From a virus, in IMG/VR virus record IMGVR_UViG_3300046810_000466, positions 1 through 64,000 of that record: 64,000 nucleotides of DNA. One strand, 5' to 3'. The notes beneath the pieces are model-generated. The model searched no databases, was not told the origin of the DNA, and saw only the letters and a program-made list of their open reading frames with translations. Position numbers and translations under genes: made by a program. Position 1 is the first letter of the stretch, and each line of letters opens with the position of its first letter. Shown here piece by piece: positions 2,774 through 16,859 of the stretch.

Positions 2774-5700
2774 TTACGCGTACGCAACTGCACTAGCCAG
2801 AGCCGCATCCATCGTCCACGGAATCTGATACGTATCGCTATCGATTGCCGCGACAACTGAAGCCAGCGTATAGCCGCCACTCGAACCCAGGAACAGTTTA
2901 TTGTTCGCGGTGGAAACACTGGTCCAAGCTGTTGAGGCTTTTGGCAGTGTACGAGTGGTCCACGTAATACCATCCGGTGACGTGATCAGGGTCGATGAAC
3001 CTTGACCCAGAGCAACGAACAACGAGCCAACACAACCGGTGAACGCCCAGGTACTGCCAGTTGGAGCTGGCGGCATGGTACGTACGGTCCATGTAGCACC
3101 GTCTGGGGAGGTCAATGCAAAGCCCGTGGTACTAAACGCGCAGAACACCGAACCATTCCAATACACCGACGTGAATGTCGCTGCACCGATACCGTTACCG
3201 ATATCGCCAGTCGACCACGTAGCGCCGCCATCGGCAGAAGTCAGCGCCAGACTACCGCTGATCATGCAGTAGATCCCGAGGGATTGACTCCATGCTACCG
3301 CGCCTTGAACAGTGCCACCACCACCTGGCGTAACCGCAGTCCAGGTAATGCCATCTGGCGACGTCATGACCGTGTTGGAGCTGACGAGTACGAACGTGCC
3401 ATTACCAGTTGTCATTGACACCCAAGTCAACGAGTTAGGCAAGACACGTTGAGTCCATGTCGCACCGTCTGGCGACGTCGCTGCAATCGTACCGCCTGGA
3501 ATAACTGCGCAGAACACTGTTCCGTTCCACGCCACGTACTTCCAGTTACCAGCAACTGGCATTGGGCGCTGTGTCCAGTTGATGCCATCCACCGAAGTCA
3601 GCACGAAGGTCGCACCAGTCACACCGTTAACCGTCGCAACATACACACTGCCGTTCCATGCGACTTGGTTAACGGAGAGCGCAGCACTGACATGACCCGT
3701 GTACAGGCTCACTGCATCCGAGCTATACACGTTGATACCCGCGTTTGCCAAGAACAGACCTTTACCAGCGCCACTGGCCGTAGCTACCGGCGCTGCTGTG
3801 ATCGGAAGCGCCGTACTGCGTTGCGTCCATACACCACCGTCAAGACTGGTATACGCAGCAGATGCAGTGCTAGGGACGATCACAAATGAACCGCCCACAA
3901 CACCGCAAAGTGACATGCTCGCAAAGGTAGGATTGGCAGTCGGAGTTGCCCACGTAATGCCATCAGGGCTAGCGATACCGTTCTGGTTAGCCAGAGCTAT
4001 GGCAGCGAAAGTACTATTGCCGTAAGCAACTCCAGCCCACGTCCCACTCGGTACTACCCGTTGAGTCCAGGTGATCCCGTCTGGCGAGGTGGAACCATTC
4101 GTGCTATTGCCAAGGGTAACAAACACACCGTTACCGAAAGCAATCGAACTCCAGTTAGAACTAGCCGACAACACCCGTTGAGTCCAGGTAATGCCGTCCG
4201 GTGATGTTGCGGCCACCGAACTACCAGTTCCAACAGTAACGAACACGCCGTTACCAAACGCCACAGCGCGCCAGTTGACGTTCGTTGGCAAGACGCGCTG
4301 CGTCCAGGTGATACCATCTGGGCTAGTAGCAGCGATAGTACTGCTGCCAGCAATGGCAACGAACACACCGTTGCCGAACGTGATCCCTTGCCAGTTAGCA
4401 CTTACAGGCAAGACCCGTGCTGTCCAAGTGATGCCGTCTGGTGACGTAGCGGCGATAGTACTGCCCCATGCAACAGCACAGAACACCGTGCCATTCCATG
4501 CAACGGAATACCAACCACTGCTCGACGGCATTGCCCGTTGAGTCCAGTTGATACCATCCGGGGATGTCGCCGCAGTTGTGCTACCGTTCGCAACCGCAAC
4601 GAAGAGACCGTTGCCGAACGTAACTGACTGCCAGCTGACACTTGCAGGCAGAGCACGCAGTGTCCAAGCGATACCGTCTGACGACGTTGCTACCGTGGTG
4701 CTGCTTTGTCCGATTGCGACGAACACGCCGTTACCGAAAGCCATGCATGCCCAGCTAGCAGCAGACGGCAACTTCGGCGTGTACCAGGTCAGCGCATCTG
4801 CACTCGAATAGATTGCAGAGGCCGAATTAACTACGAACTTCGAACCATTGTGCGCCAATCCCGCCTGAACAACTGCAGCCGGAAGAGAAGCATGCTGCCA
4901 CTTCAGACCATCGGTGGTGCTGCACAAAGTGCTCGAGGCGCCCGTACTTGCTATTGCAACCCGTGTACCAGACGACGCATTGATAAAACTCAATGCGGTA
5001 TAGCTCAGCATCTTTCGAGTCCAAGTCACACCGTCTGGCGACGTAGTGGCAAAGGTGCTATTACTAGCTACGGCACAGAACACGCTACCGTTCCAAACGA
5101 TTGACACCCATCCACCACCGCCAGATGGCGCGGTTGCCGAAGTCCAGGTAATGCCGTCTGGCGACGTAGCAACGGCACTACTACCGTTTGCAACAGCGCA
5201 GAACACCGTACCGTTCCACGCGATCGCAGTCCAGTTCAAACTACTCGGCAAGACGCGCTGCGTCCAGGTGATACCATCTGGGCTAGTGGCCGCGATGGTG
5301 GCACCGTTTGCAACAGCAACATACACACCGTTACCGTAGGTGACGGCTTGCCAAGTGGTGCTAACAGGCAAGACACGCTGTGTCCACGTGATACCATCCG
5401 GGGATGTCGCAGCGATGGTAGTGTTGTAGGCAACAGCAACGAACACGCCGTTGCCGAACGTAACTGACTGCCATGCACTACTTACTGGTAATGCCCGCTG
5501 GGTCCAGGTAATGCCGTCTGGCGACGTCGCAGCAATCGAACTACCGTTTGCGACGGCGACAAAGACACCGTTGCCGTAGGTCATTGACTGCCAGCTAACG
5601 CCTGCTGGCAAGACACGTTGTGTCCAAGTCACACCGTCTGGCGACGTCGCTGCAATGGTACTGCCCAGTGTAACGGCAACGAACACACCGTTACCGTAGG

Positions 5701-8700
5701 TGACGGCTTGCCAGTTAGCGCTCACCGGCATTGCGCGAAGCGTCCAGTTGATGCCGTCTGAGCTGGTGGCGGCGAGACCGCTGCTTTGTGCGATAGCAAC
5801 GAAAACACTGTTACCAAAGGCGACTGATTTCCAGGTGATACTCGCCGGCAGTTCCTGATTTTTAACTGTCCAGGTAATGCCATCCAGGGAAGTAGCCACC
5901 GCTGCATTGCCGCCGGTTGCTGTGGCGCAGAACATGCTACCATTCCAAGTAAGGCCATACCAGCTAGCACTCAACGGCATCACGCGTTGTGTCCAAGTCA
6001 CGCCATCTGGGCTGGTGGCTGCGATGGTGCCGGCACTGGCCACTAACGCGCAGAACACTGTTCCGTTCCAAACAATCGTTTGCCAGCTAGCACTTACTGG
6101 CAAGACGCGCTGCGTCCAGGTAATGCCGTCTGGCGATGTTGCTGCGATGGAAGTGCCACTTGCTACGGCGCAGAAGACGGAGCCGTTCCAAGCGATTGAC
6201 GTCCAGGGGCTACTCACTGGCATGGAACGTGCTGTCCATGTAATGCCGTCCGGAGAGGTAGCTGCAACGATATCGCCGAAGATAACAGCGCAGAACACAC
6301 TGCCGTTCCATGCAACGGAATACCAGTTACCACTCTGAGGCATCGCGCGTTGGGTCCACGTGATGCCGTCTGGACTGGTCACTGCGATACCTGTGGTGGA
6401 TGACACAATAACAAAGGTGCCATTGCCATAGGCAATATCTGTCCAGCTAGCACTTACTGGCAAGACGCGCTGCGTCCATGTGATGCCGTCGGTGGACGTC
6501 GCGGCATTAACCGAGGCGTTTGCCGTAACGACGAAGATGCCGTTGCCGAAAAAGAGGTTTGACCAGTTACCGCTTGTTGGCATGGTGCGCCGGGTCCAAG
6601 TCACCGCATCTGGCGATGTCGCTACAATGTTATTGCTGGTGGCGACGAAGATGCCGTTGCCGAAAGCAACCGATCCCCAGTTATCGGTCGTTGGCAACAG
6701 GGCATTGGCAGCAATCCAAGTTACGCCGTTATCATTACTGATGTAGACGTTCGTAATTGCCACCGCGATCAAGCGCGCGCCAACAGAAGTAATGGAGGTA
6801 CCGGCGCTGCCTGGCACAAGACGCAATGTCCAGGTAATGCCATCTGGCGATGTGGCGACCACGTTACGAAGGCTGGATGCAGCGCAGAACACCGTACCGT
6901 TCCAGGTAATCGACTGCCATGCTTCCGATGCTGGCAATTTCGACTTAGTCCAGGTCAGGCCGCCATCGGTACTGTAGGCCGCAGCATCTGAACGAGTAGC
7001 CGCCGCTGGACCAGACACAGCCACGTAACGATCACCGCCGAAAGCCATTGCCGTCCAACCGGTCGAGTATGGCATAGCTGGCATCATATCCGTCAGTGAC
7101 GTGACCATGCCGTCAGGCAGAGCCAAGGAAGCCAGATCCGTATTCGCGGCTTTCGATACAGCGCCGCCGCGAGTCGTAACCTGATAACCTGCCAGCTGAA
7201 TGCCTGCGGTAACATCATCCAACAGTGCCACTGTACCACTCTTGTTGGGCAGGTCGTATTGACGTTCTGTGGTGTTGGTGTTACTGAACAGCGACGTGAT
7301 GGTGCCGGCGACGTTCTTCATCTTCAGCTGGTACGACGCGGACAGGCCAGCGTAGCCGTTGGCGGCATCGCGCGCCGTAACGTTTTCTGGCACATAACCA
7401 ATATTTGTCTCCAGCACATCCCAGTTAGCGGCATTTTGCCCTGGATTGTCAACCAGCGCCCGCACGGAATCGCCAACGGCAACCGCAACTCCACTCAGTT
7501 GACCTGCCACCGAGATGAAGAACAAGTTACCTTTCTTGATAGCGCCGCCGGCGCCAGTTCCGCCGGTAGCTGGGTACGCGTTGCCTGAAGCGTTCCAGCT
7601 GCCACAATCAACGACAACGCCAGTGGTAACAGCGTCGACCAGCGTCTTTACAGCCAAGGACGTGGGGTAGGTTACGTCGCTTGGAGCGCCGAAATTAACC
7701 ACCTTGTTCGCAACAGCTTCCGCACCCAGCGAAGCCAGTGTCTGGTCACCCGTGTTGCTGCCGGTAACAACAGTTGCACCCAACTTGGCCAAGAGGCCCG
7801 CTTGTGTCTCATCACCGGTATTCGAACCAGTTACTGCGGTGGCGCCGAGTTTGCCCAGAATACCAGCCTGGGTCTCATCGCCAGTATTGGCGCCGGACAG
7901 GGTGCTGATGCTCAGTTTCGATTTGATGGACGCAGTAGTTTCATCACCGGTATTGCTGCCGCTCACCTGATCGAGGGCGGCACGGTTAGTGTGGTCAATC
8001 GCCGCTTTCTCGGCAGGAGTAACGAACACCTTGGTGCCTGATTCCGTGATCGAAGCGGCAGGCTGCGAACCGGTGTGATTGGCGCGATCGAGCAGGAACG
8101 CATCGGCCTGGTTGGCAGTGAAACCGGCAGGATTGGAAGCGTTGTAGGGAACGAAGCCCAAGTTCGACTCCATGCCGTCCCATTTCGCAGCCACTTGACC
8201 TGGATTGTCTTCCAGGGCACGGAAGCTGTCGCCCACGTTGTACGACACGCCACCCAGAACACCAGGAGCGTTAACGTACCACAGGTTGCCCTTTTGGATG
8301 GAGCCGTCTACGGCCGAGCCACCGGTGGTTGGGAACAGGCCGCCGGATGCATCCCAGCTGCCGCGGTCATTGAGAACACCGACCAACGCGGAGTCGATGG
8401 CGCCTTTGACGGCCTTCGTGGTTGGATATTTTTCGTCGTTGACCACGTTGAAGTTGGTCGCTTTGTTAGCCGAGACTTCTTTCGTTGCCAGTGCCGAATT
8501 GACGGCAGACTGTTGGGCAAAGATGATGTTGGCGTCAATCAGCTTCTGTTCGATACCTGCGCCGGTTTCATCACCAGTGTTGACACCGGTAACTTGATCG
8601 AGAGCGGTGCGATTTGCATGCACGACACCTTCGACGGCCGTTTCCACATCGGCTTGGGTAGCCAGATGGATGTCAGCATTTTCCAGCTTCGCCATGATAC

Positions 8701-8935
8701 CAACAGCAGTCTCGTCGCCGGTATTGGCATCAGCCACGGCTTGAACTTGATCAGCCAGACCGGAGTAGTCGCCGAGGATATTCTTTTGGAGTTTACGGAT
8801 CGAATCAATTGATCCGCCACCAGGCAGGGCTGCGCTGGTTTCGTCGTCGCCTGTGACGACGGTGTGCATAATTGCACTGTCAGCAACGAAGGAAGCTTTC
8901 GCGGCTTCCAGGTCTTGATCATTTACTGGGGGCAT
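2774..8935 (-). CDS. Giant tail fiber/receptor-binding protein with multiple Asp-box (BNR) beta-propellers
   Basis: 2053 aa. N-terminal anchor, NTGDET shaft repeats, two 'GSW(D/N)AS..TGG..I.KGNL' modules, then ~34 repeats of ~40 aa ending in S.DG.TWT. Confidence 0.85.
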   Translation of the reverse strand: MPPVNDQDLEAAKASFVADSAIMHTVVTGDDETSAALPGGGSIDSIRKLQKNILGDYSGLADQVQAVADANTGDETAVGIMAKLENADIHLATQADVETAVEGVVHANRTALDQVTGVNTGDETGAGIEQKLIDANIIFAQQSAVNSALATKEVSANKATNFNVVNDEKYPTTKAVKGAIDSALVGVLNDRGSWDASGGLFPTTGGSAVDGSIQKGNLWYVNAPGVLGGVSYNVGDSFRALEDNPGQVAAKWDGMESNLGFVPYNASNPAGFTANQADAFLLDRANHTGSQPAASITESGTKVFVTPAEKAAIDHTNRAALDQVSGSNTGDETTASIKSKLSISTLSGANTGDETQAGILGKLGATAVTGSNTGDETQAGLLAKLGATVVTGSNTGDQTLASLGAEAVANKVVNFGAPSDVTYPTSLAVKTLVDAVTTGVVVDCGSWNASGNAYPATGGTGAGGAIKKGNLFFISVAGQLSGVAVAVGDSVRALVDNPGQNAANWDVLETNIGYVPENVTARDAANGYAGLSASYQLKMKNVAGTITSLFSNTNTTERQYDLPNKSGTVALLDDVTAGIQLAGYQVTTRGGAVSKAANTDLASLALPDGMVTSLTDMMPAMPYSTGWTAMAFGGDRYVAVSGPAAATRSDAAAYSTDGGLTWTKSKLPASEAWQSITWNGTVFCAASSLRNVVATSPDGITWTLRLVPGSAGTSITSVGARLIAVAITNVYISNDNGVTWIAANALLPTTDNWGSVAFGNGIFVATSNNIVATSPDAVTWTRRTMPTSGNWSNLFFGNGIFVVTANASVNAATSTDGITWTQRVLPVSASWTDIAYGNGTFVIVSSTTGIAVTSPDGITWTQRAMPQSGNWYSVAWNGSVFCAVIFGDIVAATSPDGITWTARSMPVSSPWTSIAWNGSVFCAVASGTSIAATSPDGITWTQRVLPVSASWQTIVWNGTVFCALVASAGTIAATSPDGVTWTQRVMPLSASWYGLTWNGSMFCATATGGNAAVATSLDGITWTVKNQELPASITWKSVAFGNSVFVAIAQSSGLAATSSDGINWTLRAMPVSANWQAVTYGNGVFVAVTLGSTIAATSPDGVTWTQRVLPAGVSWQSMTYGNGVFVAVANGSSIAATSPDGITWTQRALPVSSAWQSVTFGNGVFVAVAYNTTIAATSPDGITWTQRVLPVSTTWQAVTYGNGVYVAVANGATIAATSPDGITWTQRVLPSSLNWTAIAWNGTVFCAVANGSSAVATSPDGITWTSATAPSGGGGWVSIVWNGSVFCAVASNSTFATTSPDGVTWTRKMLSYTALSFINASSGTRVAIASTGASSTLCSTTDGLKWQHASLPAAVVQAGLAHNGSKFVVNSASAIYSSADALTWYTPKLPSAASWACMAFGNGVFVAIGQSSTTVATSSDGIAWTLRALPASVSWQSVTFGNGLFVAVANGSTTAATSPDGINWTQRAMPSSSGWYSVAWNGTVFCAVAWGSTIAATSPDGITWTARVLPVSANWQGITFGNGVFVAIAGSSTIAATSPDGITWTQRVLPTNVNWRAVAFGNGVFVTVGTGSSVAATSPDGITWTQRVLSASSNWSSIAFGNGVFVTLGNSTNGSTSPDGITWTQRVVPSGTWAGVAYGNSTFAAIALANQNGIASPDGITWATPTANPTFASMSLCGVVGGSFVIVPSTASAAYTSLDGGVWTQRSTALPITAAPVATASGAGKGLFLANAGINVYSSDAVSLYTGHVSAALSVNQVAWNGSVYVATVNGVTGATFVLTSVDGINWTQRPMPVAGNWKYVAWNGTVFCAVIPGGTIAATSPDGATWTQRVLPNSLTWVSMTTGNGTFVLVSSNTVMTSPDGITWTAVTPGGGGTVQGAVAWSQSLGIYCMISGSLALTSADGGATWSTGDIGNGIGAATFTSVYWNGSVFCAFSTTGFALTSPDGATWTVRTMPPAPTGSTWAFTGCVGSLFVALGQGSSTLITSPDGITWTTRTLPKASTAWTSVSTANNKLFLGSSGGYTLASVVAAIDSDTYQIPWTMDAALASAVAYA
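2830..7075 (-). repeat. ~120-bp coding tandem repeat array (~34 units)
   Basis: Consensus QRVLPxSxxWxxVx(F/Y)GNGVFVAV or WNGTVFCAV...IAATSPDGITWT. Identical DNA stretches include 4287-4327 = 5247-5287 and 6083-6118 = 6443-6478. Confidence 0.9.
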
Positions 8936-8974: not shown

Positions 8975-9658
8975 TTATTGCGGAGCACTCGGAGCGATGG
9001 AGGTGTAGTTCCAGTAGCCAGGAGTAGCCATCATGGACAGCGTTTCATTCAACGCGCCAGCAACAACCACCATTGGTGGCGGCAGCTCAGGATCGCCGTT
9101 TGGATAATGCAGACCGCCCAGTTGGGTATACTGAATGTTATCCAGATCCCAAGCATCCGGGAGAATGCGGAGGTTAACGCCACCAACGAAGATCTTACTC
9201 GCCGCGTTCGCTTCAAAGCGCACATACGCGTTAGCGTACGGGGGCGGTCCTTCGAACACAGGGAGTTGAGCATCGAACACGTCTTCAGGGCGAAGATTGA
9301 TGCGATAGAATTCGTTGATATCGGGCAGCAGATCGAGCAAGTTGTCGTGCTCATTCTTAGCGATGCCGTCGATGGTGTAGGGATAGCGAGTCGATTCCGT
9401 GTCGTCCGTACGGAACATGTCACGGACACGAATGCGATTGTACTTGATGTTGGCTTGGTTGATATAGCCTGAGTTTGCGGCCGGTGAAACAGTCAACGCC
9501 GTACGGGTGTTGTTGAATGTTTCGCGGCCGGAAACAGGATCGGGGGCGATCGAGATCGAACTGAGTACAACGTCGGAAGGTTTGATGTTCCGGCCGTTCT
9601 CCTCATTGATCAAGGCCACCAAGATCGAATCAGGATCTTGAGTGAGGTCAATTGCCAT
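8975..9658 (-). CDS. phiKZ-like small virion/tail adapter protein (paralog 2 of 4)
   Basis: 227 aa. ILVALINEEN...SGYINQANIKYNRI...INEFYRINLRPEDV...SKIFVG. Confidence 0.65.
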   Translation of the reverse strand: MAIDLTQDPDSILVALINEENGRNIKPSDVVLSSISIAPDPVSGRETFNNTRTALTVSPAANSGYINQANIKYNRIRVRDMFRTDDTESTRYPYTIDGIAKNEHDNLLDLLPDINEFYRINLRPEDVFDAQLPVFEGPPPYANAYVRFEANAASKIFVGGVNLRILPDAWDLDNIQYTQLGGLHYPNGDPELPPPMVVVAGALNETLSMMATPGYWNYTSIAPSAPQ

Positions 9659-9743
9659 GACTTGTGCCGTTTACAAAAGAGGTTTAACTACGAGCGTGAG
9701 GCATACGATAAAGTAAAAAAATATCCATTGAAATACCGTGACA

Positions 9744-9776
9744 CACCCTGTATCCTCACAGGAGGATACAGGGGTG
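9744..9776 (-). terminator. Hairpin/terminator
   Basis: CACCCTGTATCCTC-ACAG-GAGGATACAGGGGTG, followed by CTATGC. Confidence 0.65.
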
Positions 9777-9788
9777 CTATGCTCTTAT

Positions 9789-10706
9789 TTAGTTTGCAAC
9801 AAACTCTTGGTAAGTTTGCGGCCAGCCACCAGAGTAATCGTAACTGTCCGGATCAGTGGCAGCCATCATGGCCTGACGATGCTGCTCTGCAATAACGAAC
9901 AATTCGCTCTCTTTGTCTACGCCTGCATCGATGATCTGGTGCAACAGGTTCTGGGTGAAAGGAACAAACTCGCCCGACATGGTTTTCCATGACGTGAAGA
10001 CTGTCGTTGGAGGAATCCCTTTACGGGTCAGCGAACCGTCCAACAGGGCGTACTGGTTACGGCTAGCCGCATCAGTCCAGAACCAGTACGACTTGGTGCC
10101 GACCGTCAGCTGTACACCACCGGCCTTACGGCGTTCACGTTCGTCGTGGATGCGCAACCATTGATCATCCTGCTTTTCTTTTTTGGTGTACGCGATTGCT
10201 GGCGCCTGCATCATGGCAACGAATTCATCCGTGATGCGGGTAACGCTTTCAACGTCAATAGCTCGCAGGAAATCCAACTCAGCAGGAATAGCTGGCCACG
10301 CAATCGTGTACAGCGAATTCTGTTGCGGGATATCACGCAGAGCTTGGCGGAAGGAGCTGATCCGACGTTGTGAGACTACGTCGTACGACGCCCAACGATC
10401 GCTGGTAGTGACAGCGTCCGTAGCTTCCAGCAATGGGTTACGCATCGAGCGAACCCAGTCGTCAACAGTTGGCGTGCACATCGTGACAATCGCATCAATG
10501 CTCGCCTGACTGATACCGAACTGAACAGCAGTGTCGACCGTCATGAAACCAACCCCATGGTTCTGGGACCAGGCCAAGTTAGCCAATGACTCGTCAGACA
10601 GATCGCAGAGACTGGCAATGTTACGCCACGTGTCAGGGAGTTGAATCAAGTCAACTGCCACCTTTGCATCCAAATCGCACTGCAGATACCATTTTGCATT
10701 CTTCAT
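9789..10706 (-). CDS. Tail fiber assembly chaperone (tail assembly chaperone domain plus DUF4376-like domain)
   Basis: 305 aa. 'RSMRNPLLEATD...FRQALRDIPQQ...IAWPAIP' followed by 'ERERRKAGGV...WFWTDAASRNQY...WKTMSGEFV...AEQHRQAM'. Confidence 0.75.
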   Translation of the reverse strand: MKNAKWYLQCDLDAKVAVDLIQLPDTWRNIASLCDLSDESLANLAWSQNHGVGFMTVDTAVQFGISQASIDAIVTMCTPTVDDWVRSMRNPLLEATDAVTTSDRWASYDVVSQRRISSFRQALRDIPQQNSLYTIAWPAIPAELDFLRAIDVESVTRITDEFVAMMQAPAIAYTKKEKQDDQWLRIHDERERRKAGGVQLTVGTKSYWFWTDAASRNQYALLDGSLTRKGIPPTTVFTSWKTMSGEFVPFTQNLLHQIIDAGVDKESELFVIAEQHRQAMMAATDPDSYDYSGGWPQTYQEFVAN

Positions 10707-10723
10707 GTTGCTATCCTTTTCTT

Positions 10724-11569
10724 TTACGTACCAGTAATGGTGACATACCCACCAGCTGGCACAGTAATCGTTACGCCATTCGTTGAGTATGCGATGCTTG
10801 ATGGCGTTGGCCCGATAACGGGGGCGAGACTATCGCCTGGTCCACCCGGGAAGGTTACGCCGAAGATGTTCGTTGGCGAGCCTGGAGTTCCAGGGACATA
10901 CGGGTTATACACTGCATTGCCCGGGACGTAGGGATTGTACTCAGCATAGCCCGGTTCGTCTGGGTTGTAATACGCATTCCCTGGAACATACGGGTTGTAG
11001 TTCGCATTCCCTGGGTTACCAGGGTTGTAATACGCATAACCTGGTGTCGATGAGTTCTGATAGCCATTACCTTCAATGGTTTCAGGACTGACGTCGACAC
11101 TGTAATAAGACTGGTTTGTCGGATTGTAACTGGAGAACGGACTCACGGTGAAGTAGGGATTTACCGTATAAGACGAATAACTCCCGTTCGGAGACGAGTG
11201 GTATTCGTACAAACCAATCCCTGGTTTAGATGGATTGGTTCCTGAATTACCAGGGATTGGCGGATTGTAACCAGCTACGTTACCGGGCGACGGAGGATTC
11301 GTCCCAGTGTAGTTACCACCACTGCCGGGATTGGTGCCAGCATAGTTACCTGGCTCATCCGGGTTGTAGTAGGCGACATTCCCGCCCGTAGCCGGATTGT
11401 AATACGAGACATTGCCACCGTAAGAGTAGTTACCAGAGGCACCTCGACCAGCAATCTTAAACACGCCCTTACCGTAGGGTGGTTTGTAGACTCCAGTCGA
11501 GTTCATCGTCGTCGTTCCTTTGACGGCGAGATTGCTCCGCTCACGGCGAAGCATGTTTGCTAGTTTCAT
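10724..11569 (-). CDS. Pro/Gly/Asn/Tyr-repeat protein A (putative fiber-tip adhesin)
   Basis: 281 aa. PGNxxYNPxx repeats flank a unique core. Paralog of 11582..12334. Confidence 0.7.
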   Translation of the reverse strand: MKLANMLRRERSNLAVKGTTTMNSTGVYKPPYGKGVFKIAGRGASGNYSYGGNVSYYNPATGGNVAYYNPDEPGNYAGTNPGSGGNYTGTNPPSPGNVAGYNPPIPGNSGTNPSKPGIGLYEYHSSPNGSYSSYTVNPYFTVSPFSSYNPTNQSYYSVDVSPETIEGNGYQNSSTPGYAYYNPGNPGNANYNPYVPGNAYYNPDEPGYAEYNPYVPGNAVYNPYVPGTPGSPTNIFGVTFPGGPGDSLAPVIGPTPSSIAYSTNGVTITVPAGGYVTITGT

Positions 11570-11581
11570 AATGCTCGCATT

Positions 11582-12334
11582 CTAAAGAGTGGTGATCGTC
11601 ACATATCCTCCAGAACCAACGGTAATGGGGATTGGACTGGCTGTATATCTGAGTGTAGATGGTGCTGGCGCCACCACTGGCGCCAAGCTGTCAGCAGCGC
11701 CTCCAGGAAAGACAACACCACCAACTGAATTAGTTGGCCCAGGGTTTCCTGGGACGTATGGGTTGTAGTTCGCATTACCCGGGGTTGGCGAATTGTAATA
11801 CGCATAACCGGGTTCTGTTGGATTGTAATAGGCAGTGCCAGGAGTGTCTGGATTAGAATACGCATTACCAGGCACTTCAACATCATCGTACTCTGCTTCG
11901 TTCAGCGTCCAATCCCCATTACCGTATTCTCGGTACTGTGAATCGCTTGGTGGATGTGGTCCGCTGCCAGACCAGTGGCCGGAGTAGCCCGCACTCGTGA
12001 ACTGTCCATCAATGGTGCCGTATTGAAAGAATGTGGTAATGTTCCACGGACCAGGCTGTGGAGGGTTATAGCCTGTGTTACCTGGTTCTGGCGAATTATA
12101 TCCAGCGACATTACCAGGTTCCGGACTATACGATCCGGCATAGTTGCCAGGAACCGTTGGGTTATAATAACTTACATTTCCACCTGAAGCATAATTCCCA
12201 GCTGCACCCCGTCCTCCTACTCTCACCGCACCTTTTCCGTATGGGAGAACAAGGTTACCAGGCGCATTCATTGTGTACGACCCTTTAAGAGGTCGATTGG
12301 TTACTTCCCGCATTAACATTCGAGCTAATTTCAT
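11582..12334 (-). CDS. Pro/Gly/Asn/Tyr-repeat protein B (putative fiber-tip adhesin)
   Basis: 250 aa. Same N-terminal (MKLA.ML.RE..N...KG..TMN) and C-terminal (FPGG..DSLAPV...ITV..GGYVTIT) framework as protein A. Confidence 0.7.
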   Translation of the reverse strand: MKLARMLMREVTNRPLKGSYTMNAPGNLVLPYGKGAVRVGGRGAAGNYASGGNVSYYNPTVPGNYAGSYSPEPGNVAGYNSPEPGNTGYNPPQPGPWNITTFFQYGTIDGQFTSAGYSGHWSGSGPHPPSDSQYREYGNGDWTLNEAEYDDVEVPGNAYSNPDTPGTAYYNPTEPGYAYYNSPTPGNANYNPYVPGNPGPTNSVGGVVFPGGAADSLAPVVAPAPSTLRYTASPIPITVGSGGYVTITTL

Positions 12335-12352
12335 ATTACTCTCACAATCGAT

Positions 12353-12379
12353 AGAGTCGCGAGCAGTGCTCGCGACTCT
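12353..12379. other. Perfect intergenic hairpin with no U-tract (RNA processing/stability element?)
   Basis: AGAGTCGCGAGC-AGT-GCTCGCGACTCT, between the fiber and adhesin genes. Confidence 0.5.
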
Positions 12380-12391
12380 GTTGAACTGCGT

Positions 12392-15130
12392 TTATTTTGC
12401 GTCTGCAACTGCCAAGCTACCGAAGTACACACCGTTGTCGACAAAGAACGTCCACACGTCAATCGCATTCGCCGTCGTAGTCCGTGGTGGGAGGAAGCCG
12501 CCTGCCCACTTGATGGTGTTGCCGAACGCCAGACCACGTCCAGCCGTGCCGTCGTTGGTAGTGATCAGCGTGAAGCTGAACAACTCACCATTGGTCGGTG
12601 TAGGTGGATTGCTAAACGTTACTGTGGTGTTGGCCGCAACCGCAACTTTGAAGACGACTGCTTGGTCGCCAGTGTTGAGGTCCACTGCTGTAGCTGCTGT
12701 GTTAGCCGTAATCGAACGAGACTTATCCAACAGGCCGCCCACCAAAGGCGCACCAGTCGCACGATTGTAGGACACGCAGTGCACAACACCACCAGGACGA
12801 CCGACAAACGTCGCGTAATCGCCGGCGGCGGTCTTGATGTCCAGGCCGGTCGGCAACACCAGGTTCACGCTATTGGTCAGGGTCAAGATGCCAGAGAACC
12901 GAACCAGACGTTCTGCACCATCAGTCAATACAATCGACGTGATGTTCGTCGTACCAGTGACGTCAACAACGTTACCGGTTGCATTGGTCAGGTTCAGCGC
13001 AGCGATCGAAGCCAAGTCAGCACCACGCGCAACGTCAAACGTACCAACGACGTTCACACCTTTGATAGTCACAGCCAGACGGGTAACAAGGTTGCGGTCA
13101 GCCAATGAAACGTCCGCAGCAGAACCGTTACCAACAACAGTAGCGCCACGAGTGGTGTCCGATGCCACCATGCCAAGACCAGCTGTAGCCTGAGCCGAAG
13201 CTGCGGTTCCTGTTGTCACCAAGCGGCCGCCACTGAACGTACCCGCAGCCAGCGTATTCGTGCTAGGGTTATAGTTCAGCTCCGTATCAGCCTTCAGTGC
13301 GGTCTGGGAATTGATACCGTCGCCGAAGGAAATGTAGTACGTTGCATTGGTGTTGGCGGCATCGTTAAACTTAACCGAACCGTTGACATTCAGGGTTAGT
13401 GGACTACTGCCCAACTTCCCCAGAATTGTGCTTTGATTCTCATCGCCAGTGTTGGTACCAGACACCAGATCGAGCGCAGCGCGATTTGCGTGAGTGATAG
13501 CCACCTTTTCGCCAGCGGTCACAAACACACGACCCACCGTTTCATCAATCGTCAATGCCGATTGCGTGCCGGTATGGCTCGAACGTGCCACCAGATAGGC
13601 GTCGGTTTGGTTGCTAGTGAAACCCAACGGATTCGTAGCGTTATACGGCACGTACCCAATGTTCGATTCCAACACATCCCAGTTCGATGCAACTTGACCA
13701 GGATCATCAACCAGCGCGCGGAAACTGTCGCCAACGTTGACAGCCACTCCACCCAACAGACCGACAACACTAACGAACCACAGGTTGCCCTTCTGAATGC
13801 TTCCAGTAGGGCTAGAACCGCCCGTGGTGGGCCAAGCGTTAGAACTAGCATCCCAACTACCCCGATCGTTCAGAACGCCTGTGAGACGCGTATCCAGATA
13901 GGACCGAACGGCTTGGGTGGTTGGATACAACGTGTTGTTGATCGTGGCGAAGCTGGTTGCTTTGTTCGACAGGTTTTCTTTGATCAGTGCCAGGTTGGTT
14001 AACTCAGCGAAAGCCGCATTCAGCTGGCCTTGGATCTTCCCTATCGCCAGCAACACCGTATCAGCGGCCGCCACCGCTGAATTCGAACCCACCGCATAAC
14101 CAGCCAACACGGACGAGATGGAACGCAGTTGCGTGAAATACAGGTTCAGATTACCTTCGGCCAGCTGATTGGTGCTGTTGAGTACCACGTTCAGCAGGTT
14201 GTAATTGGTGCCGTTCCAGTAGTATACGCCGCCGTTATCTTCAGCGATGTAAATCCGTTTCTGAACCCCAGGCTGAGGAATCACCCCGTAGTTAGCAACT
14301 GTGACCACCGATTCAAACGCAGCGGGCAAGTTCTCGGTCGGCACCAGACGGTTCGCATCCAGCGGTGCTACACCGTTAAGTGCATTGCGGGCACCCAGTG
14401 GCATGATCTCATAGCCGACTTTAGCAACGATGCTCTCACGGGTTTCGTCACCAGCGTTCACACCGGAGATCGAAGGGATCTGCAGCTTTGACAGAATGGA
14501 TGTCTTAGTCTCGTCACCGGTGTTATCGCCAGACAGAACAGTAATGTTCAGCTTGGCACGAATGGTGGCAGTTGTTTCATCGCCGGTATTAGTATTGCTG
14601 TTGATGCCTTTGATGTCACTCTTCAGTGCCAACACGCCGTCGCCATCAGGCAGTTCAATCATGCGGCTGACGTTGTGGTTATGGAACAAATAACTAAAGA
14701 TGCTGTCTGCACCATTCCGGATTGGCAGCTTGGCGCCTTCGTAGCCGAAGTAGCCGCCGACCTTGTTGCGATTGGCTGGCGTTTCACGACCGTCGATCTG
14801 AGCGATCAGGGTTTCAATGGCACCTTGTACAGCAATGGAGAGCGGCAACTCAGATGGCGCCAAGTTCTCAACCTTGTCCAAGTTGAGGTTAGCGCGACCC
14901 CAGGCCTTCTGGTTGTTATCGTAACCGCCATCACCATCAAGGCGCAGTCGGTTACTCAGGTCAGGCACCAGCTGGTCAATGCGTTCAGCTGCCAAGCGGG
15001 CTTGTTTCGCGATGCTAGGGACCGGGCCATTCGGAGTAGCCACATCGGTCTGGTCATCCCCTTTTGCATACTGACCAGCCTTGCTCATGCTGTCTTTAAA
15101 GCCGACAATCAGATTGTCTAATTCGGACAT
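12392..15130 (-). CDS. Tail fiber protein
   Basis: 912 aa. Anchor (KGDDQTDVATPNGPVPSIAK), NTGDET repeats, 'EGNLNLYFTQLR', an NDRGSWDAS module, and a C-terminal 'IKWAGG..P..TTTANAIDVWTF' tip domain. Confidence 0.85.
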   Translation of the reverse strand: MSELDNLIVGFKDSMSKAGQYAKGDDQTDVATPNGPVPSIAKQARLAAERIDQLVPDLSNRLRLDGDGGYDNNQKAWGRANLNLDKVENLAPSELPLSIAVQGAIETLIAQIDGRETPANRNKVGGYFGYEGAKLPIRNGADSIFSYLFHNHNVSRMIELPDGDGVLALKSDIKGINSNTNTGDETTATIRAKLNITVLSGDNTGDETKTSILSKLQIPSISGVNAGDETRESIVAKVGYEIMPLGARNALNGVAPLDANRLVPTENLPAAFESVVTVANYGVIPQPGVQKRIYIAEDNGGVYYWNGTNYNLLNVVLNSTNQLAEGNLNLYFTQLRSISSVLAGYAVGSNSAVAAADTVLLAIGKIQGQLNAAFAELTNLALIKENLSNKATSFATINNTLYPTTQAVRSYLDTRLTGVLNDRGSWDASSNAWPTTGGSSPTGSIQKGNLWFVSVVGLLGGVAVNVGDSFRALVDDPGQVASNWDVLESNIGYVPYNATNPLGFTSNQTDAYLVARSSHTGTQSALTIDETVGRVFVTAGEKVAITHANRAALDLVSGTNTGDENQSTILGKLGSSPLTLNVNGSVKFNDAANTNATYYISFGDGINSQTALKADTELNYNPSTNTLAAGTFSGGRLVTTGTAASAQATAGLGMVASDTTRGATVVGNGSAADVSLADRNLVTRLAVTIKGVNVVGTFDVARGADLASIAALNLTNATGNVVDVTGTTNITSIVLTDGAERLVRFSGILTLTNSVNLVLPTGLDIKTAAGDYATFVGRPGGVVHCVSYNRATGAPLVGGLLDKSRSITANTAATAVDLNTGDQAVVFKVAVAANTTVTFSNPPTPTNGELFSFTLITTNDGTAGRGLAFGNTIKWAGGFLPPRTTTANAIDVWTFFVDNGVYFGSLAVADAK

Positions 15131-15163
15131 GGTTCTTCCTTTTATCTATGCTTGTGTTTTGTA

Positions 15164-15649
15164 CTAAGTGAACAGGTCCGCGGCTTCGTTATTCCAGAAG
15201 TCCAACAGTCCAGGTGCTTCAGCGGGAATCCCGTTCAAAAGCGTCACCTGTGTGTTCCCCAACCAAACTAGGGAAGAACTCTTTGCACTCAGAATGAAAT
15301 TGGTAATCACACCATTATCGACTAGAGGCAAGCCGTCGTTGGTGAAATCGTCCGCAGTCATCTGTGCGTCTTTTTGATAGTTGATGAGACCGAGCAGTTC
15401 GTCGTAACTGAACTGTTCTTCCCGGACAAAGATCAGGTCACCCAAGGCCGTCAAGTTCACTCGGGTATAGAACAAGTCAACTTGACCAGTGTAGCCACGT
15501 CCATGCACAGCACGCATGACTGCGCGGGTGTTGTGAGTAGAAGCACCTTCCACCACTTGTTCGCCGATAGTGACCACACCTTGAACCAGCGGGTACGTCG
15601 GCCGATTCTTTTCGTAGATCATTGCAACGATACGATCGAAGCTTGACAT
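15164..15649 (-). CDS. phiKZ-like small virion/tail adapter protein (paralog 3 of 4)
   Basis: 161 aa. HNTRAVMRAVHGRGYTGQVDLFYTRV...SLVWLG. Confidence 0.65.
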   Translation of the reverse strand: MSSFDRIVAMIYEKNRPTYPLVQGVVTIGEQVVEGASTHNTRAVMRAVHGRGYTGQVDLFYTRVNLTALGDLIFVREEQFSYDELLGLINYQKDAQMTADDFTNDGLPLVDNGVITNFILSAKSSSLVWLGNTQVTLLNGIPAEAPGLLDFWNNEAADLFT

Positions 15650-15681
15650 GTTCTTTCCTTTTATACATGCAACAAAAAAAG

Positions 15682-15840
15682 TAGCATCCCTACCCTCACT
15701 CGCCTAGATGAGGTAAGTAAGGGTAGGGATGCTATTTCATTGGCGTCAAAAATGAGAGCAGAATGAAAGAAATAAAGGAGGAGGATTTCTCCCCCTCCTT
15801 TATCATTCCTATCCCTCGGGATAACTCGAAAGGTATCCCG
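15682..15840. other. Cluster of three intergenic hairpins
   Basis: Stems at 15682-15734 (15 bp), 15772-15803 and 15817-15840. The first is followed by T7 on the minus strand, which is terminator-like. Confidence 0.55.
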
Positions 15841-15847
15841 CTACGGA

Positions 15848-16363
15848 TTAGTAGACAGGGTAGGACAGGCCGTTCAGTTCGGTCACGGTGATCAGGGTGG
15901 CCAGGTCGACGTCGTTACCGTCGATGATCAGTTCCAGCGAGCCGCGGAAGATGTACGAACCGGTTTTGGCGCGCAGCGTGAAGGCTTCGGTTTCCAGCGG
16001 ATCGCTGCCGTCGAAGGTTGGCATCGCGTCGTCTTCGATGTCTTCCGGCTGCAGGTTCAGCTGGTAGGCGGCGTTCAGTGCCGGGATCAGGCCGTGTGCC
16101 GACGTGACGGAGCCGATGTTGAAGGTCTTGTTGCGCGCGCCAGGGATGGCAGCCAGGTCAACGCGGTCGTAGGTCAGATCGCGCTGGCCGGTATAGCCGC
16201 GGCCGTTGACAGCGGTGATGCGCACGCCGGTGTTCTTGTTGCCGGAGCCGAGAACGGAAGGCGCCGTGAAGGTGACGTCCTGGGTGGTCAGTGCGGTGAC
16301 GTTGGTTTCATTGATCAGATCGATCAGGATCTGCAAGGGTGCTTTGGTGAAATCGGTTGCCAT
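15848..16363 (-). CDS. phiKZ-like small virion/tail adapter protein (paralog 4 of 4)
   Basis: Likely start MATDFTKAP at 16363 after a GAGG RBS. KNTGVRITAVNGRGYTGQRDLTYDRV...LNAAYQLNLQPEDI...SYIFRG. Strongly biased codons. Confidence 0.7.
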   Translation of the reverse strand: MATDFTKAPLQILIDLINETNVTALTTQDVTFTAPSVLGSGNKNTGVRITAVNGRGYTGQRDLTYDRVDLAAIPGARNKTFNIGSVTSAHGLIPALNAAYQLNLQPEDIEDDAMPTFDGSDPLETEAFTLRAKTGSYIFRGSLELIIDGNDVDLATLITVTELNGLSYPVY

Positions 16364-16484
16364 GGAAGTGCCTCGGATAGAAGTGGATGGTGGTTTGCTT
16401 GAGCCAGGAAATGCAGAAGCCATTAGCTCAGTATGGCATAAGATAAATAAATATTTGATTTATGCAGAGAAATAGGAAAGTCTC

Positions 16485-16859
16485 CTACTGACAGGGATCT
16501 GCTGATGGCTTGCCAAGTATGTAATCAATTACTGACTTAGGACGAAACAAGCGCACAAACATTCCTGTCGAGATGAAGTCAAACCGTTTGAACGGGTCGT
16601 CCTCATCGTAGATCTCCACATGGATCAAACCCGTTTCAAGGTCTTGCATCAACACTTCTACATGTAGTTGACCGCAACGGCTGTCATACGTGCCGCGCTT
16701 CACAACTACATGGGAAGGAACGTAGTTTGGCACCATGGATGGCTTAAAGTCGCCCTCCGTAGTACCAGGAGTCGTTTGCAGTTGTCTTGCCAGCTCTGCA
16801 AACGACTTATCAACAAAGGAGTGGAATTGCTCCTTTGCTTTGTTCAGCTGGTCGTCCAT
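16485..16859 (-). CDS. Hypothetical protein
   Basis: 124 aa with an AAGGAG RBS, packed directly after the upstream gene. Confidence 0.6.
   Translation of the reverse strand: MDDQLNKAKEQFHSFVDKSFAELARQLQTTPGTTEGDFKPSMVPNYVPSHVVVKRGTYDSRCGQLHVEVLMQDLETGLIHVEIYDEDDPFKRFDFISTGMFVRLFRPKSVIDYILGKPSADPCQ

Follow-up and report, generated by a model that had tools for sequence, protein, structure and literature searches.

Tailed phages owe their host range to proteins at the fibre tip, of which few architectures are understood. By analogy, the functionally closest known system is the gp38 adhesin of S16/T2-type phages (PDB 6F45), which passages of PMC6851490 describe as a small, separately encoded monomer on the tip of the gp37 trimer, attached via an N-terminal helical bundle and comprising ten poly-Gly motifs or helices together with five short variable loops; gp38 adhesins are also treated in PMC3157838 and PMC12032242. 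Here we analysed two tandem genes, A and B, at positions 10,724 to 12,334 of a 64,000-nucleotide (nt) stretch of viral DNA (positions 1 to 64,000 of the IMG/VR record IMGVR_UViG_3300046810_000466), referred to as the window. As with gp38, their products are small separate proteins encoded right behind a distal fibre gene, they are proposed here to cap the tip of that fibre, and short Gly- or Pro-rich repeats frame putative host-range parts that are hypervariable. The differences are substantial. There is no sequence relation to gp38: no model in Pfam (E ≤ 0.1), PHROGs or NCBIfam matches A or B, and a Pfam scan of all 45 aligned members of their family, with hits admitted up to E = 10, gave weak matches to five unrelated families and none to a gp38 family. 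Neither A nor B has a Gly run beyond GG, their units reading GNxxxxNP and GNxxxNP; both termini would form the base, joined to arms of 11- and 10-residue Asn/Tyr/Pro/Gly units and to a single core of 40-130 residues; and the set of oxygenase and DUF6065 genes found beside most relatives has no counterpart in the passages of PMC6851490 that describe gp38. We assign a probability of about 0.6 to the reading that A and B are paralogues in an unnamed family of fibre-tip proteins with fold-back arms, in which the base docks on the fibre and the core binds the receptor. The locus would thus encode a separate fibre-tip protein with an architecture that we have not found in print.

Both genes lie on the minus strand, with B ahead of A. 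The open reading frame (ORF) of B (11582-12334) encodes 250 amino acids (aa) and that of A (10724-11569) encodes 281 aa, and both products align full length with the family profile (E = 1.4e-71 for B and 1.4e-97 for A). The two proteins are 45 % identical over their full length (BLASTP, E = 2e-62), mostly through their termini and arms, which bears out an earlier, preliminary description of the window according to which A and B have N- and C-terminal segments in common; the ORF coordinates given there were also correct. In B an N-terminal base segment (aa 1-47, 12194-12334), conserved family-wide and located with an N-domain hidden Markov model (HMM), is followed by an outgoing arm of four units, three of 11 aa and the last of 10 aa (aa 48-95, 12050-12193), a variable core of 59 aa running from PWNITT to DDVEV (aa 96-154, 11873-12049), a returning arm of four 10-aa units (aa 155-195, 11750-11872) and a C-terminal base segment located with a C-domain HMM (aa 196-250 and the stop codon, 11582-11749). 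A is laid out likewise, with an N-terminal base segment placed by the same HMM and by conservation (aa 1-47, 11429-11569), an outgoing arm of six units, five of 11 aa and the last of 10 aa (aa 48-117, 11219-11428), a 48-aa core from IGLYEY to SPETI (aa 118-165, 11075-11218), a returning arm of five clear 10-aa units preceded by a degenerate first unit (aa 166-226, 10892-11074) and a C-terminal base segment, again placed by the C-domain HMM (aa 227-281 and the stop codon, 10724-10891). The arms were delimited by unit parsing. Both genes are tightly packed, with 12 nt between B and A and 17 nt between A and the chaperone gene that follows, an arrangement in keeping with the reading proposed here.

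Outgoing units take the form xx[G/P]GNxxxxNP (11 aa), with conserved Gly at positions 3-4 and 8, and returning units the form xxPGNxxxNP (10 aa); Gly, Pro, Asn and Tyr together make up 53 % of A. The exactly matched counts claimed in the preliminary description, 6/6 for A and 4/4 for B, are recovered when the arms are read by eye and are not fully reproduced by a position matrix, which tiles A with six outgoing and five returning units and B with three and four. In A the sixth returning unit, EGNGYQNSS, is a degenerate copy under the threshold, and the count is 6/6 only if it is included; in B it is the second outgoing unit, GNYAGSYSP, that lies under the threshold, hence three of four were called. 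Across the family the units greatly exceed chance, the two matrices yielding 378 type-1 and 487 type-2 matches at a score of at least 4 bits as against 2 and 4 in shuffled copies. Within the N-terminal segment the columns of E10, K34 and G33/G41/G43/G46 are invariant or almost so in the family alignment, E10 being present in at least 90 % of 45 sequences. Judged by this conservation the first ATG is the true start of A and of B, because residues ahead of Met22 are conserved family-wide. The public gene calls (P0001 for A and P0029 for B) begin at Met22 and so lose 21 conserved residues.

In the arrangement that we propose, the conserved ~47 N-terminal and ~55 C-terminal residues would lie together as a base, from which the chain would leave via n 11-residue units, pass through the core and come back via n 10-residue units (xxPGNxxYNP). 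Outgoing unit i would stand against returning unit n+1-i, producing a ladder with a length set by n and with the core at its far end. Going by gene order, the base would dock on the C-terminal domain of the fibre encoded just upstream (aa 780-912 of that fibre, 12395-12793, minus strand, delimited by alignment among relatives), the core would act as the receptor-binding knob, and the two tandem paralogues would equip the fibre with a pair of different knobs, carried on arms of six and four rungs. The X-Pro-Gly sites present in nearly every unit may be hydroxylated by the oxygenase of a gene set that adjoins the family gene in most relatives. In topology such a protein would resemble SMC and Rad50, DNA-handling ATPases in which the joined N and C termini form a head and antiparallel alpha-helical coiled-coil arms of equal length carry a domain at the far end; the arms of the present family differ in being two kinds of non-helical Pro/Gly/Asn/Tyr repeats, in a phage fibre protein. 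It would also recall the ultralong bovine antibody CDR-H3 (third complementarity-determining region of the heavy chain), where a beta-ribbon stalk without unit repeats bears a disulfide-rich mini-domain knob diversified somatically. There too a small variable knob is kept clear of a conserved scaffold by two paired strands, one ascending and one descending, whereas in the present family arm length changes in steps of whole repeat units and the knobs belong to many unrelated types. A conserved base, countable rungs and a swappable knob would make an attractive natural scaffold for the study of reach and specificity with phage-host pairs in the laboratory.

The family is known only from metagenomes and is so far without a name. 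A word-indexed search with A retrieved 105 relatives, all of which are merely 'hypothetical protein' in the source databases, and an exhaustive profile search gave 241 representatives at E ≤ 1e-3, of which 148 were at E ≤ 1e-10. The N-domain HMM matches 122 and the C-domain HMM 123 of 124 family sequences. The record that contains the window is 85,168 bp long and is estimated to be 31 % complete; its source is an uncultured giant phage. Matches to phiKZ-like jumbo phages of Burkholderia, Xanthomonas, Ralstonia and Pseudomonas, with 31-41 % identity, were obtained with a 453-aa protein encoded nearby, and the DNA of the window is present in rhizosphere metagenomes (contigs of two rhizosphere runs). 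Further searches gave little: 37 pattern matches among GTDB genome contigs (one genome per prokaryote species) included none that could be confirmed, a cluster look-up of five family members returned neither names nor accessions, and a sequence search of the PDB with the family profile gave one chance-level match (E = 1) and no solved relative. The result is an annotation gap, in which a family found only in uncultured phages is absent from Pfam, PHROGs and NCBIfam alike. The preliminary description had not recognised the architecture as a described one, and full-text literature searches likewise turned up no paper that describes a fold-back fibre tip of this kind or contains the unit motifs; the passages of PMC7029224 that concern host-recognition clusters do not describe the family either.

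A number of candidate assignments were considered and rejected. Some of the long profile matches (P0163, P0205 and similar sequences) are unrelated low-complexity proteins and do not belong to the family. A Pfam scan of the members gave weak 'Pro-rich' noise in 14 of 45, with a best E of 0.0035 that falls short of the curated cut-off. The nearest ESM Atlas clusters of A are weak (feature scores ≤ 0.85, template modelling (TM) scores ≤ 0.27), and one lead among them, Gly_rich_2 (PF21722; feature score 0.84, TM 0.25), gave no match anywhere in the window's record at E ≤ 10. A collagen-like triple helix of (G-X-Y)n type is ruled out by unit periods of 11 and 10 residues.

To compare the two arms across the family we tiled the 124 sequences with the two unit matrices and placed the base with the two small HMMs. 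Both base segments were found in 122 sequences; excluding 16 with fewer than two units and 14 that are multi-hairpin or longer than 420 aa left 92 single hairpins. From these a further 18, mostly written in other unit dialects, were dropped with less than 60 % of an arm tiled, a loss that we count against the reading, giving 74 evaluable hairpins. Outgoing and returning counts agree in 56 of the 74, are one unit apart in 12 and at least two units apart in six (Pearson r = 0.87), compared with a mean of 12.2 and a maximum of 30 equal pairs in 10,000 trials of random re-pairing. Before the 60 % tiling filter the raw arm-length correlation was only 0.20 (Pearson), because the two matrices miss arms and misplace the core in proteins of other dialects. 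To remove shared ancestry, 37 disjoint nearest-neighbour pairs were formed by base identity. A difference in one arm or both was seen in 26 of these pairs; both arms gained or lost the same number of units in 11 and changed in the same direction in 19, and the differences correlate at r = 0.77. The co-variation of outgoing and returning counts that the preliminary description had put forward as a check was thus found in homologs, as was its idea of a tunable length, the arms ranging from 1 to 10 units. Arm count has no significant relation to core length (r = -0.19, p = 0.10).

The two arms are also complementary in the kind of unit that they contain. Among 24 hairpins with uniform arms, 21 run from 11-mers to 10-mers, three run in the reverse order and none has the same type in both arms. 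Other dialects come in equal numbers on the two sides: P0050 sets six ten-residue (TYPY-type) units against six nine-residue units, plus a single long unit next to the base in either arm, a mirrored arrangement; P0056, P0059 and P0114 set four sixteen-residue units opposite four fourteen-residue units; and P0212, in which the order is reversed, has six units in each arm (6/6). In P0094 the type changes block by block, TTPPPPTT in the outgoing arm being answered by PPTTTTPP in the returning arm. The outgoing unit is always the longer partner (11/10, 10/9, 16/14), and the chain can turn tightly, with 8-9 residues between arms of six or seven units in P0064, P0068 and P0075.

Residue covariation was examined in 31 equal-count, fully tiled hairpins, in which outgoing unit i was set against returning unit n+1-i to give 139 heterotypic rungs. 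Total mutual information in this mirrored register was 12.81, compared with 11.63 +/- 0.35 when returning units were shuffled within each protein, and none of 300 shuffles reached the observed value. The contact is most evident between position 8 of the 11-mer and position 7 of the 10-mer. Gly at the former stands opposite Tyr at the latter in 71 of 116 rungs, as against 0 of the 23 rungs with a residue other than Gly (N, S, Y, T or F), which are drawn from 16 proteins and from rungs 1 to 6. In the control registers there is no association, and non-Gly residues do stand opposite Tyr, in 13 of 21 cases with a +1 shift, in 6 of 13 with a -1 shift and in 16 of 23 with parallel arms; mutual information for this pair of positions is 0.417 in the mirrored register and 0.08-0.17 in the controls. 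Rungs anchored at the base of the two proteins of the window follow the rule (Y-V, Y-E, G-Y, G-N and G-Y in A; Y-N, G-Y and G-Y in B). Such rung covariation supplies a testable contact rule from sequence alone. Because the arms are heterotypic, because the paired dialects occur in equal number and because covariation appears in the mirrored register, the arms very probably pair antiparallel and in register as a fold-back. The antiparallel hairpin postulated in the preliminary description is consistent with all of this, namely the matched counts, their joint change in independent pairs and a covariation of units confined to the mirrored register.

Several observations weigh against the reading. 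Arms differ by two or more units in P0095 (3/8), P0098 (4/7), P0017 (6/4), P0052 (8/10), P0069 (1/3) and P0102 (7/5). Unit type alone gives the mirrored register no advantage over the parallel register (27 and 25 of 36, respectively), and the total mutual information of shifted registers, 12.55-13.44, is as high as that of the mirrored register, which is singled out only by specific position pairs. Fisher's p of 7e-9 for the association of Gly with Tyr overstates independence because the sequences are related. For A the ESM Atlas offers a model of low quality, with a mean predicted local distance difference test (pLDDT) score of 0.43. No family member was detected in 50,697 isolate phage records with A at E ≤ 1e-3 or P0004 at E ≤ 10 as tblastn queries, and a megablast of 9000-16500 gave no match there. 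Neither the oxygenase gene nor the DUF6065 genes occur in the 85-kb, 31 %-complete record that contains the window; the phage probably carries the set in the unsequenced part of its genome. As a separate observation, P0095, P0098 and P0102 form a reversed-order subfamily in which the 10-mer arm comes first and the second arm alternates two unit types, and the longer arm of these proteins might fold on itself.

How paired arms would be packed is less certain. We tentatively suggest a new kind of rod, a non-helical ladder of two complementary repeat alphabets in which rung count sets the reach of the knob and the X-Pro-Gly sites are hydroxylated by a prolyl hydroxylase that the phage devotes to this purpose, with the participation of the DUF6065 partners; within it each 11-mer would pair with a 10-mer, a Gly hole facing a Tyr knob, with 10/9 and 16/14 as the other dialects. 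Alternatively, and with a similarly modest chance, the same family in the same role could form a compact two-layer pack whose outgoing layer lies face to face with the returning layer and whose width grows with n, each unit being a short strand or polyproline-II segment plus a turn, like the polyglycine-II sandwich of S16 gp38. The two turn-prone motifs of each unit, N-P-x-x and P-G-N, are suited to such a pack, as is a covarying pair that sets small against large (Gly against Tyr), as expected of face-to-face packing. A lone two-stranded ribbon of 66 residues per arm would moreover be unusually thin, and the distal domain of S16 gp38 consists of short helices and turns in the passages of PMC6851490 devoted to it. 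Other features are harder to reconcile with layers. Unit lengths are mixed within single arms and matched only by the unit's own partner (P0050, P0025), which implies independent rungs, and the outgoing unit is always longer than its partner, which implies a rule that acts rung by rung. This free mixture of long and short units within an arm would favour independent rungs, that is, the ladder.

The cores are the most diverse part of these proteins, with lengths of ~40-130 residues across the family. Cores of at least 30 aa are present in 65 of the 74 hairpins, and composition-corrected BLAST sorts them into 37 clusters, 25 of which are singletons; without the correction 64 of the 65 fell into one cluster, and that result was discarded. 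The core of B is one of the singletons. The core of A, which the preliminary description had called unique, is not so, as it falls in a seven-member type (YF.ISP...YN..NQ) with P0006, P0009, P0010, P0014, P0015 and P0024; the further claim that the two cores are dissimilar to each other does stand, the two lying in different similarity clusters. The six other carriers of the A type have bases only 40-45 % identical to that of A, and B, with a base 54 % identical to that of A, has an unrelated core. An exchangeable tip that evolves fast on a conserved base would produce such a pattern, which agrees with the swappable tip and the hypervariable cores anticipated for homologs. With a hypervariable core on a conserved base, and with core types distributed irrespective of base similarity, the proteins would fit a receptor-binding tip, and this is the role that we consider probable. 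Loci of jumbo relatives that have the gene order of the window carry a different core again, which contains a Cys pair and an additional tier of short repeats.

Other arrangements of cores and hairpins were seen among the relatives. Locus L015 (5899-8696) has four tandem paralogues of 229-231 aa with very short arms and a common but diverged aromatic core, after which the oxygenase set follows. Large members of 606-757 aa, with at least two hairpins in series, occur at L016 (6882-9131), L021 (6771-9035), L017 (6114-8387) and L013 (2139-3959) and have a third tier of 7-9-aa repeats around a Cys-pair core (CPxGW...C); these large multi-hairpin members are the ones that adjoin the oxygenase set in jumbo phages.

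The position of the family relative to fibre genes was compared at 21 viral loci by local profile searches. At all 21 the gene immediately ahead of the family gene ends in a common fibre C-terminal domain of ~110 aa, the one that also ends the 912-aa fibre of the window; this upstream gene encodes 131 to 1143 aa, and only its C-terminal domain is constant. A Tfa-like chaperone gene is found downstream at 19 of the 21 loci, and L010 and L013 have two complete modules of fibre and family gene each. In the window the B-A pair is flanked, as the preliminary description had it, by a 912-aa fibre gene upstream and a 305-aa chaperone gene downstream, and the placement between fibre and chaperone on which that description relied is therefore conserved in relatives. 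The same fibre domain occurs in cultured phages, in Roseobacter phage CRP-603 (L024, 2882-7011) and Curtobacterium phage Shrew (L025, 2300-5853), where it forms the C terminus of a tail fibre or minor tail protein and a further large tail protein comes next. With such a neighbour the domain would suit a joint to the next, more distal protein. The downstream proteins of CRP-603 and Shrew begin M-S-x-[VR]-[KL]-x-[LQ], faintly like the M-x-L-x-x-x-L-x-R-E of the family.

The proteins could also be a purely structural part of the fibre, such as a distal shaft segment, a cap or a spacer, in which the core is a tolerant loop and recognition is left to the fibres themselves. The 912-aa and 2053-aa fibres of the window do have candidate binding domains of their own (the latter has many SPDGITWT-type repeats), and a domain that precedes other large tail proteins in cultured phages may simply join fibre segments. 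We regard this as unlikely, since variability is greatest in the core (37 types among 65), which sits on a conserved base and whose type is independent of base similarity, and since tandem paralogues have different or diverged cores, two in the window and four in L015. Less probable again is an assembly factor or other product absent from mature particles, either a folding scaffold or a decoy substrate of the hydroxylase set. The genes do adjoin a chaperone gene, and T4 gp38, in the equivalent gene position, acts only in assembly according to passages of PMC6851490; such a factor would nevertheless be conserved, without hypervariable cores or arms of variable length, and a separate Tfa-like chaperone is already present at 19 of the 21 loci. 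That the arms are disordered low-complexity repeats, equal in number as a by-product of repeat duplication and with no physical pairing, has next to no likelihood in our view despite the biased composition of A, the low-confidence ESM Atlas model and the matches of the family profile to unrelated low-complexity proteins, given that outgoing and returning units differ in type and length and units within an arm are only 74-77 % alike in DNA, so that one duplication event cannot add a unit to both arms, and that neither covariation in a mirrored register nor the complementary block switching of P0094 would be expected without contact.

A fixed set of genes accompanies the fold-back proteins in most relatives. 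At 18 of the 21 loci the three genes directly behind the family gene encode a 2-oxoglutarate (2OG)-Fe(II) oxygenase and a pair of phrog_7084 / DUF6065 paralogues, a set that the preliminary description does not mention. It is lacking at L007-L009, the other three loci, which belong to jumbo relatives with the gene order of the window and genomes that are 100 %, 83 % and 100 % complete; each of these genomes has exactly one PF13640 and two phrog_7084 genes, located behind a second, larger family member. The oxygenase, of 197-244 aa, matches PF13640 (E = 2.9e-16) and phrog_61 (E = 7e-35); among solved structures it comes closest to PKHD-type hydroxylases and prolyl 4-hydroxylases (E = 1e-14 to 3e-12). 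The residues of its HxD...H...R motif (H114, D116, H177 and R187) are invariant in eight of eight aligned sequences, so that the predicted active site has the 2-His-1-carboxylate iron site and the basic 2OG-binding residue of prolyl 4-hydroxylases and PKHD-type enzymes. The phrog_7084 pair (L003 9495-10953 and the same position in 18 loci) is less readily placed. Eight of 16 proteins match DUF6065 and three of 16 weakly match dUTPase; a sequence search found no solved relative for the phrog_7084 proteins, and an exact-term full-text search of the literature found no mention of DUF6065.

X-Pro-Gly is the classical site of prolyl 4-hydroxylases. In the strict unit sets it is present in 251 of 281 ten-residue and 79 of 249 eleven-residue units, and it is a likely site of hydroxylation because an oxygenase of prolyl-4-hydroxylase type lies directly behind the family gene in most relatives. 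On the evidence of motif and synteny, hydroxylation of the arms at X-Pro-Gly is conceivable, if somewhat short of an even chance. One of the solved enzymes matched by the oxygenase is a viral prolyl 4-hydroxylase (PDB 5c5t), which we take to come from the chlorovirus PBCV-1. The two systems are alike in that a viral Fe(II)/2OG oxygenase of prolyl-4-hydroxylase type is co-encoded with proteins of X-Pro-Gly or Pro-rich repeats; the enzyme considered here differs in belonging, as judged from gene order, to a fixed cassette behind a putative fibre-tip protein, with two DUF6065 paralogues and a chaperone. Passages of PMC12774648 report that the PHROG 61 2OG-Fe(II) oxygenases of phages are structural look-alikes of the human prolyl hydroxylase EGLN3 and are widespread among phages of marine bacteria, and no substrate is named in those passages. 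The cassette oxygenase matches this same group, and what differs is that a candidate substrate is suggested here by synteny. In PMC9004378 a 2OG-Fe oxygenase is mentioned solely among replication genes. If hydroxylation were borne out, the arms would give the widespread phage 2OG-Fe(II) oxygenases of unknown role a first defined substrate. The constant link to a prolyl-hydroxylase-type enzyme and two DUF6065 proteins points to a candidate substrate for oxygenases that are usually filed as auxiliary metabolic genes.

The genes surrounding A and B in the window are all on the minus strand, in the order two DUF7941 genes, the 912-aa fibre gene, a 57-nt gap, B, A, the 305-aa chaperone gene, a further DUF7941 gene and a 2053-aa fibre gene. 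The 912-aa tail fibre gene (12392-15130) lies directly upstream of B and matches phrog_9017 'tail fiber protein' at residues 809-901. The chaperone gene (9789-10706) encodes a protein with a Tfa-like N half (PF16778, E = 3.9e-9) and a DUF4376 C half (PF14301, E = 8.7e-14) and matches tail-fibre-assembly families of PHROGs; A and B themselves give no match to the Phage_tail_APC profile (PF16778) that this neighbour matches. The 57-nt gap between the fibre gene and B contains a predicted RNA stem-loop (12343-12390, minus strand; -28.2 kcal/mol, z = -5.4, with none of 200 shuffles as good). It has a perfect 12-bp stem, begins straight after the stop codon of the fibre gene, takes up most of the gap and has no clear U-tract behind it; it could lower or stabilise the downstream transcript.

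Paralogues of DUF7941 / phrog_1037 stand beside both fibre genes. One of 227 aa (8975-9658) directly precedes the 2053-aa fibre gene and one of 161 aa (15164-15649) directly precedes the 912-aa fibre gene, with another of 191 aa (15848-16423) one gene further upstream of the latter; all three are on the minus strand, and in L007-L009 the DUF7941 genes are arranged as in the window. The 2053-aa fibre-like protein (2774-8935, minus strand) contains dozens of ~40-aa units of ATSPDGITWT type, which presumably resemble Asp-box/BNR repeats. The NTGDET-type repeats near its N-terminal part are also found in the 912-aa fibre.

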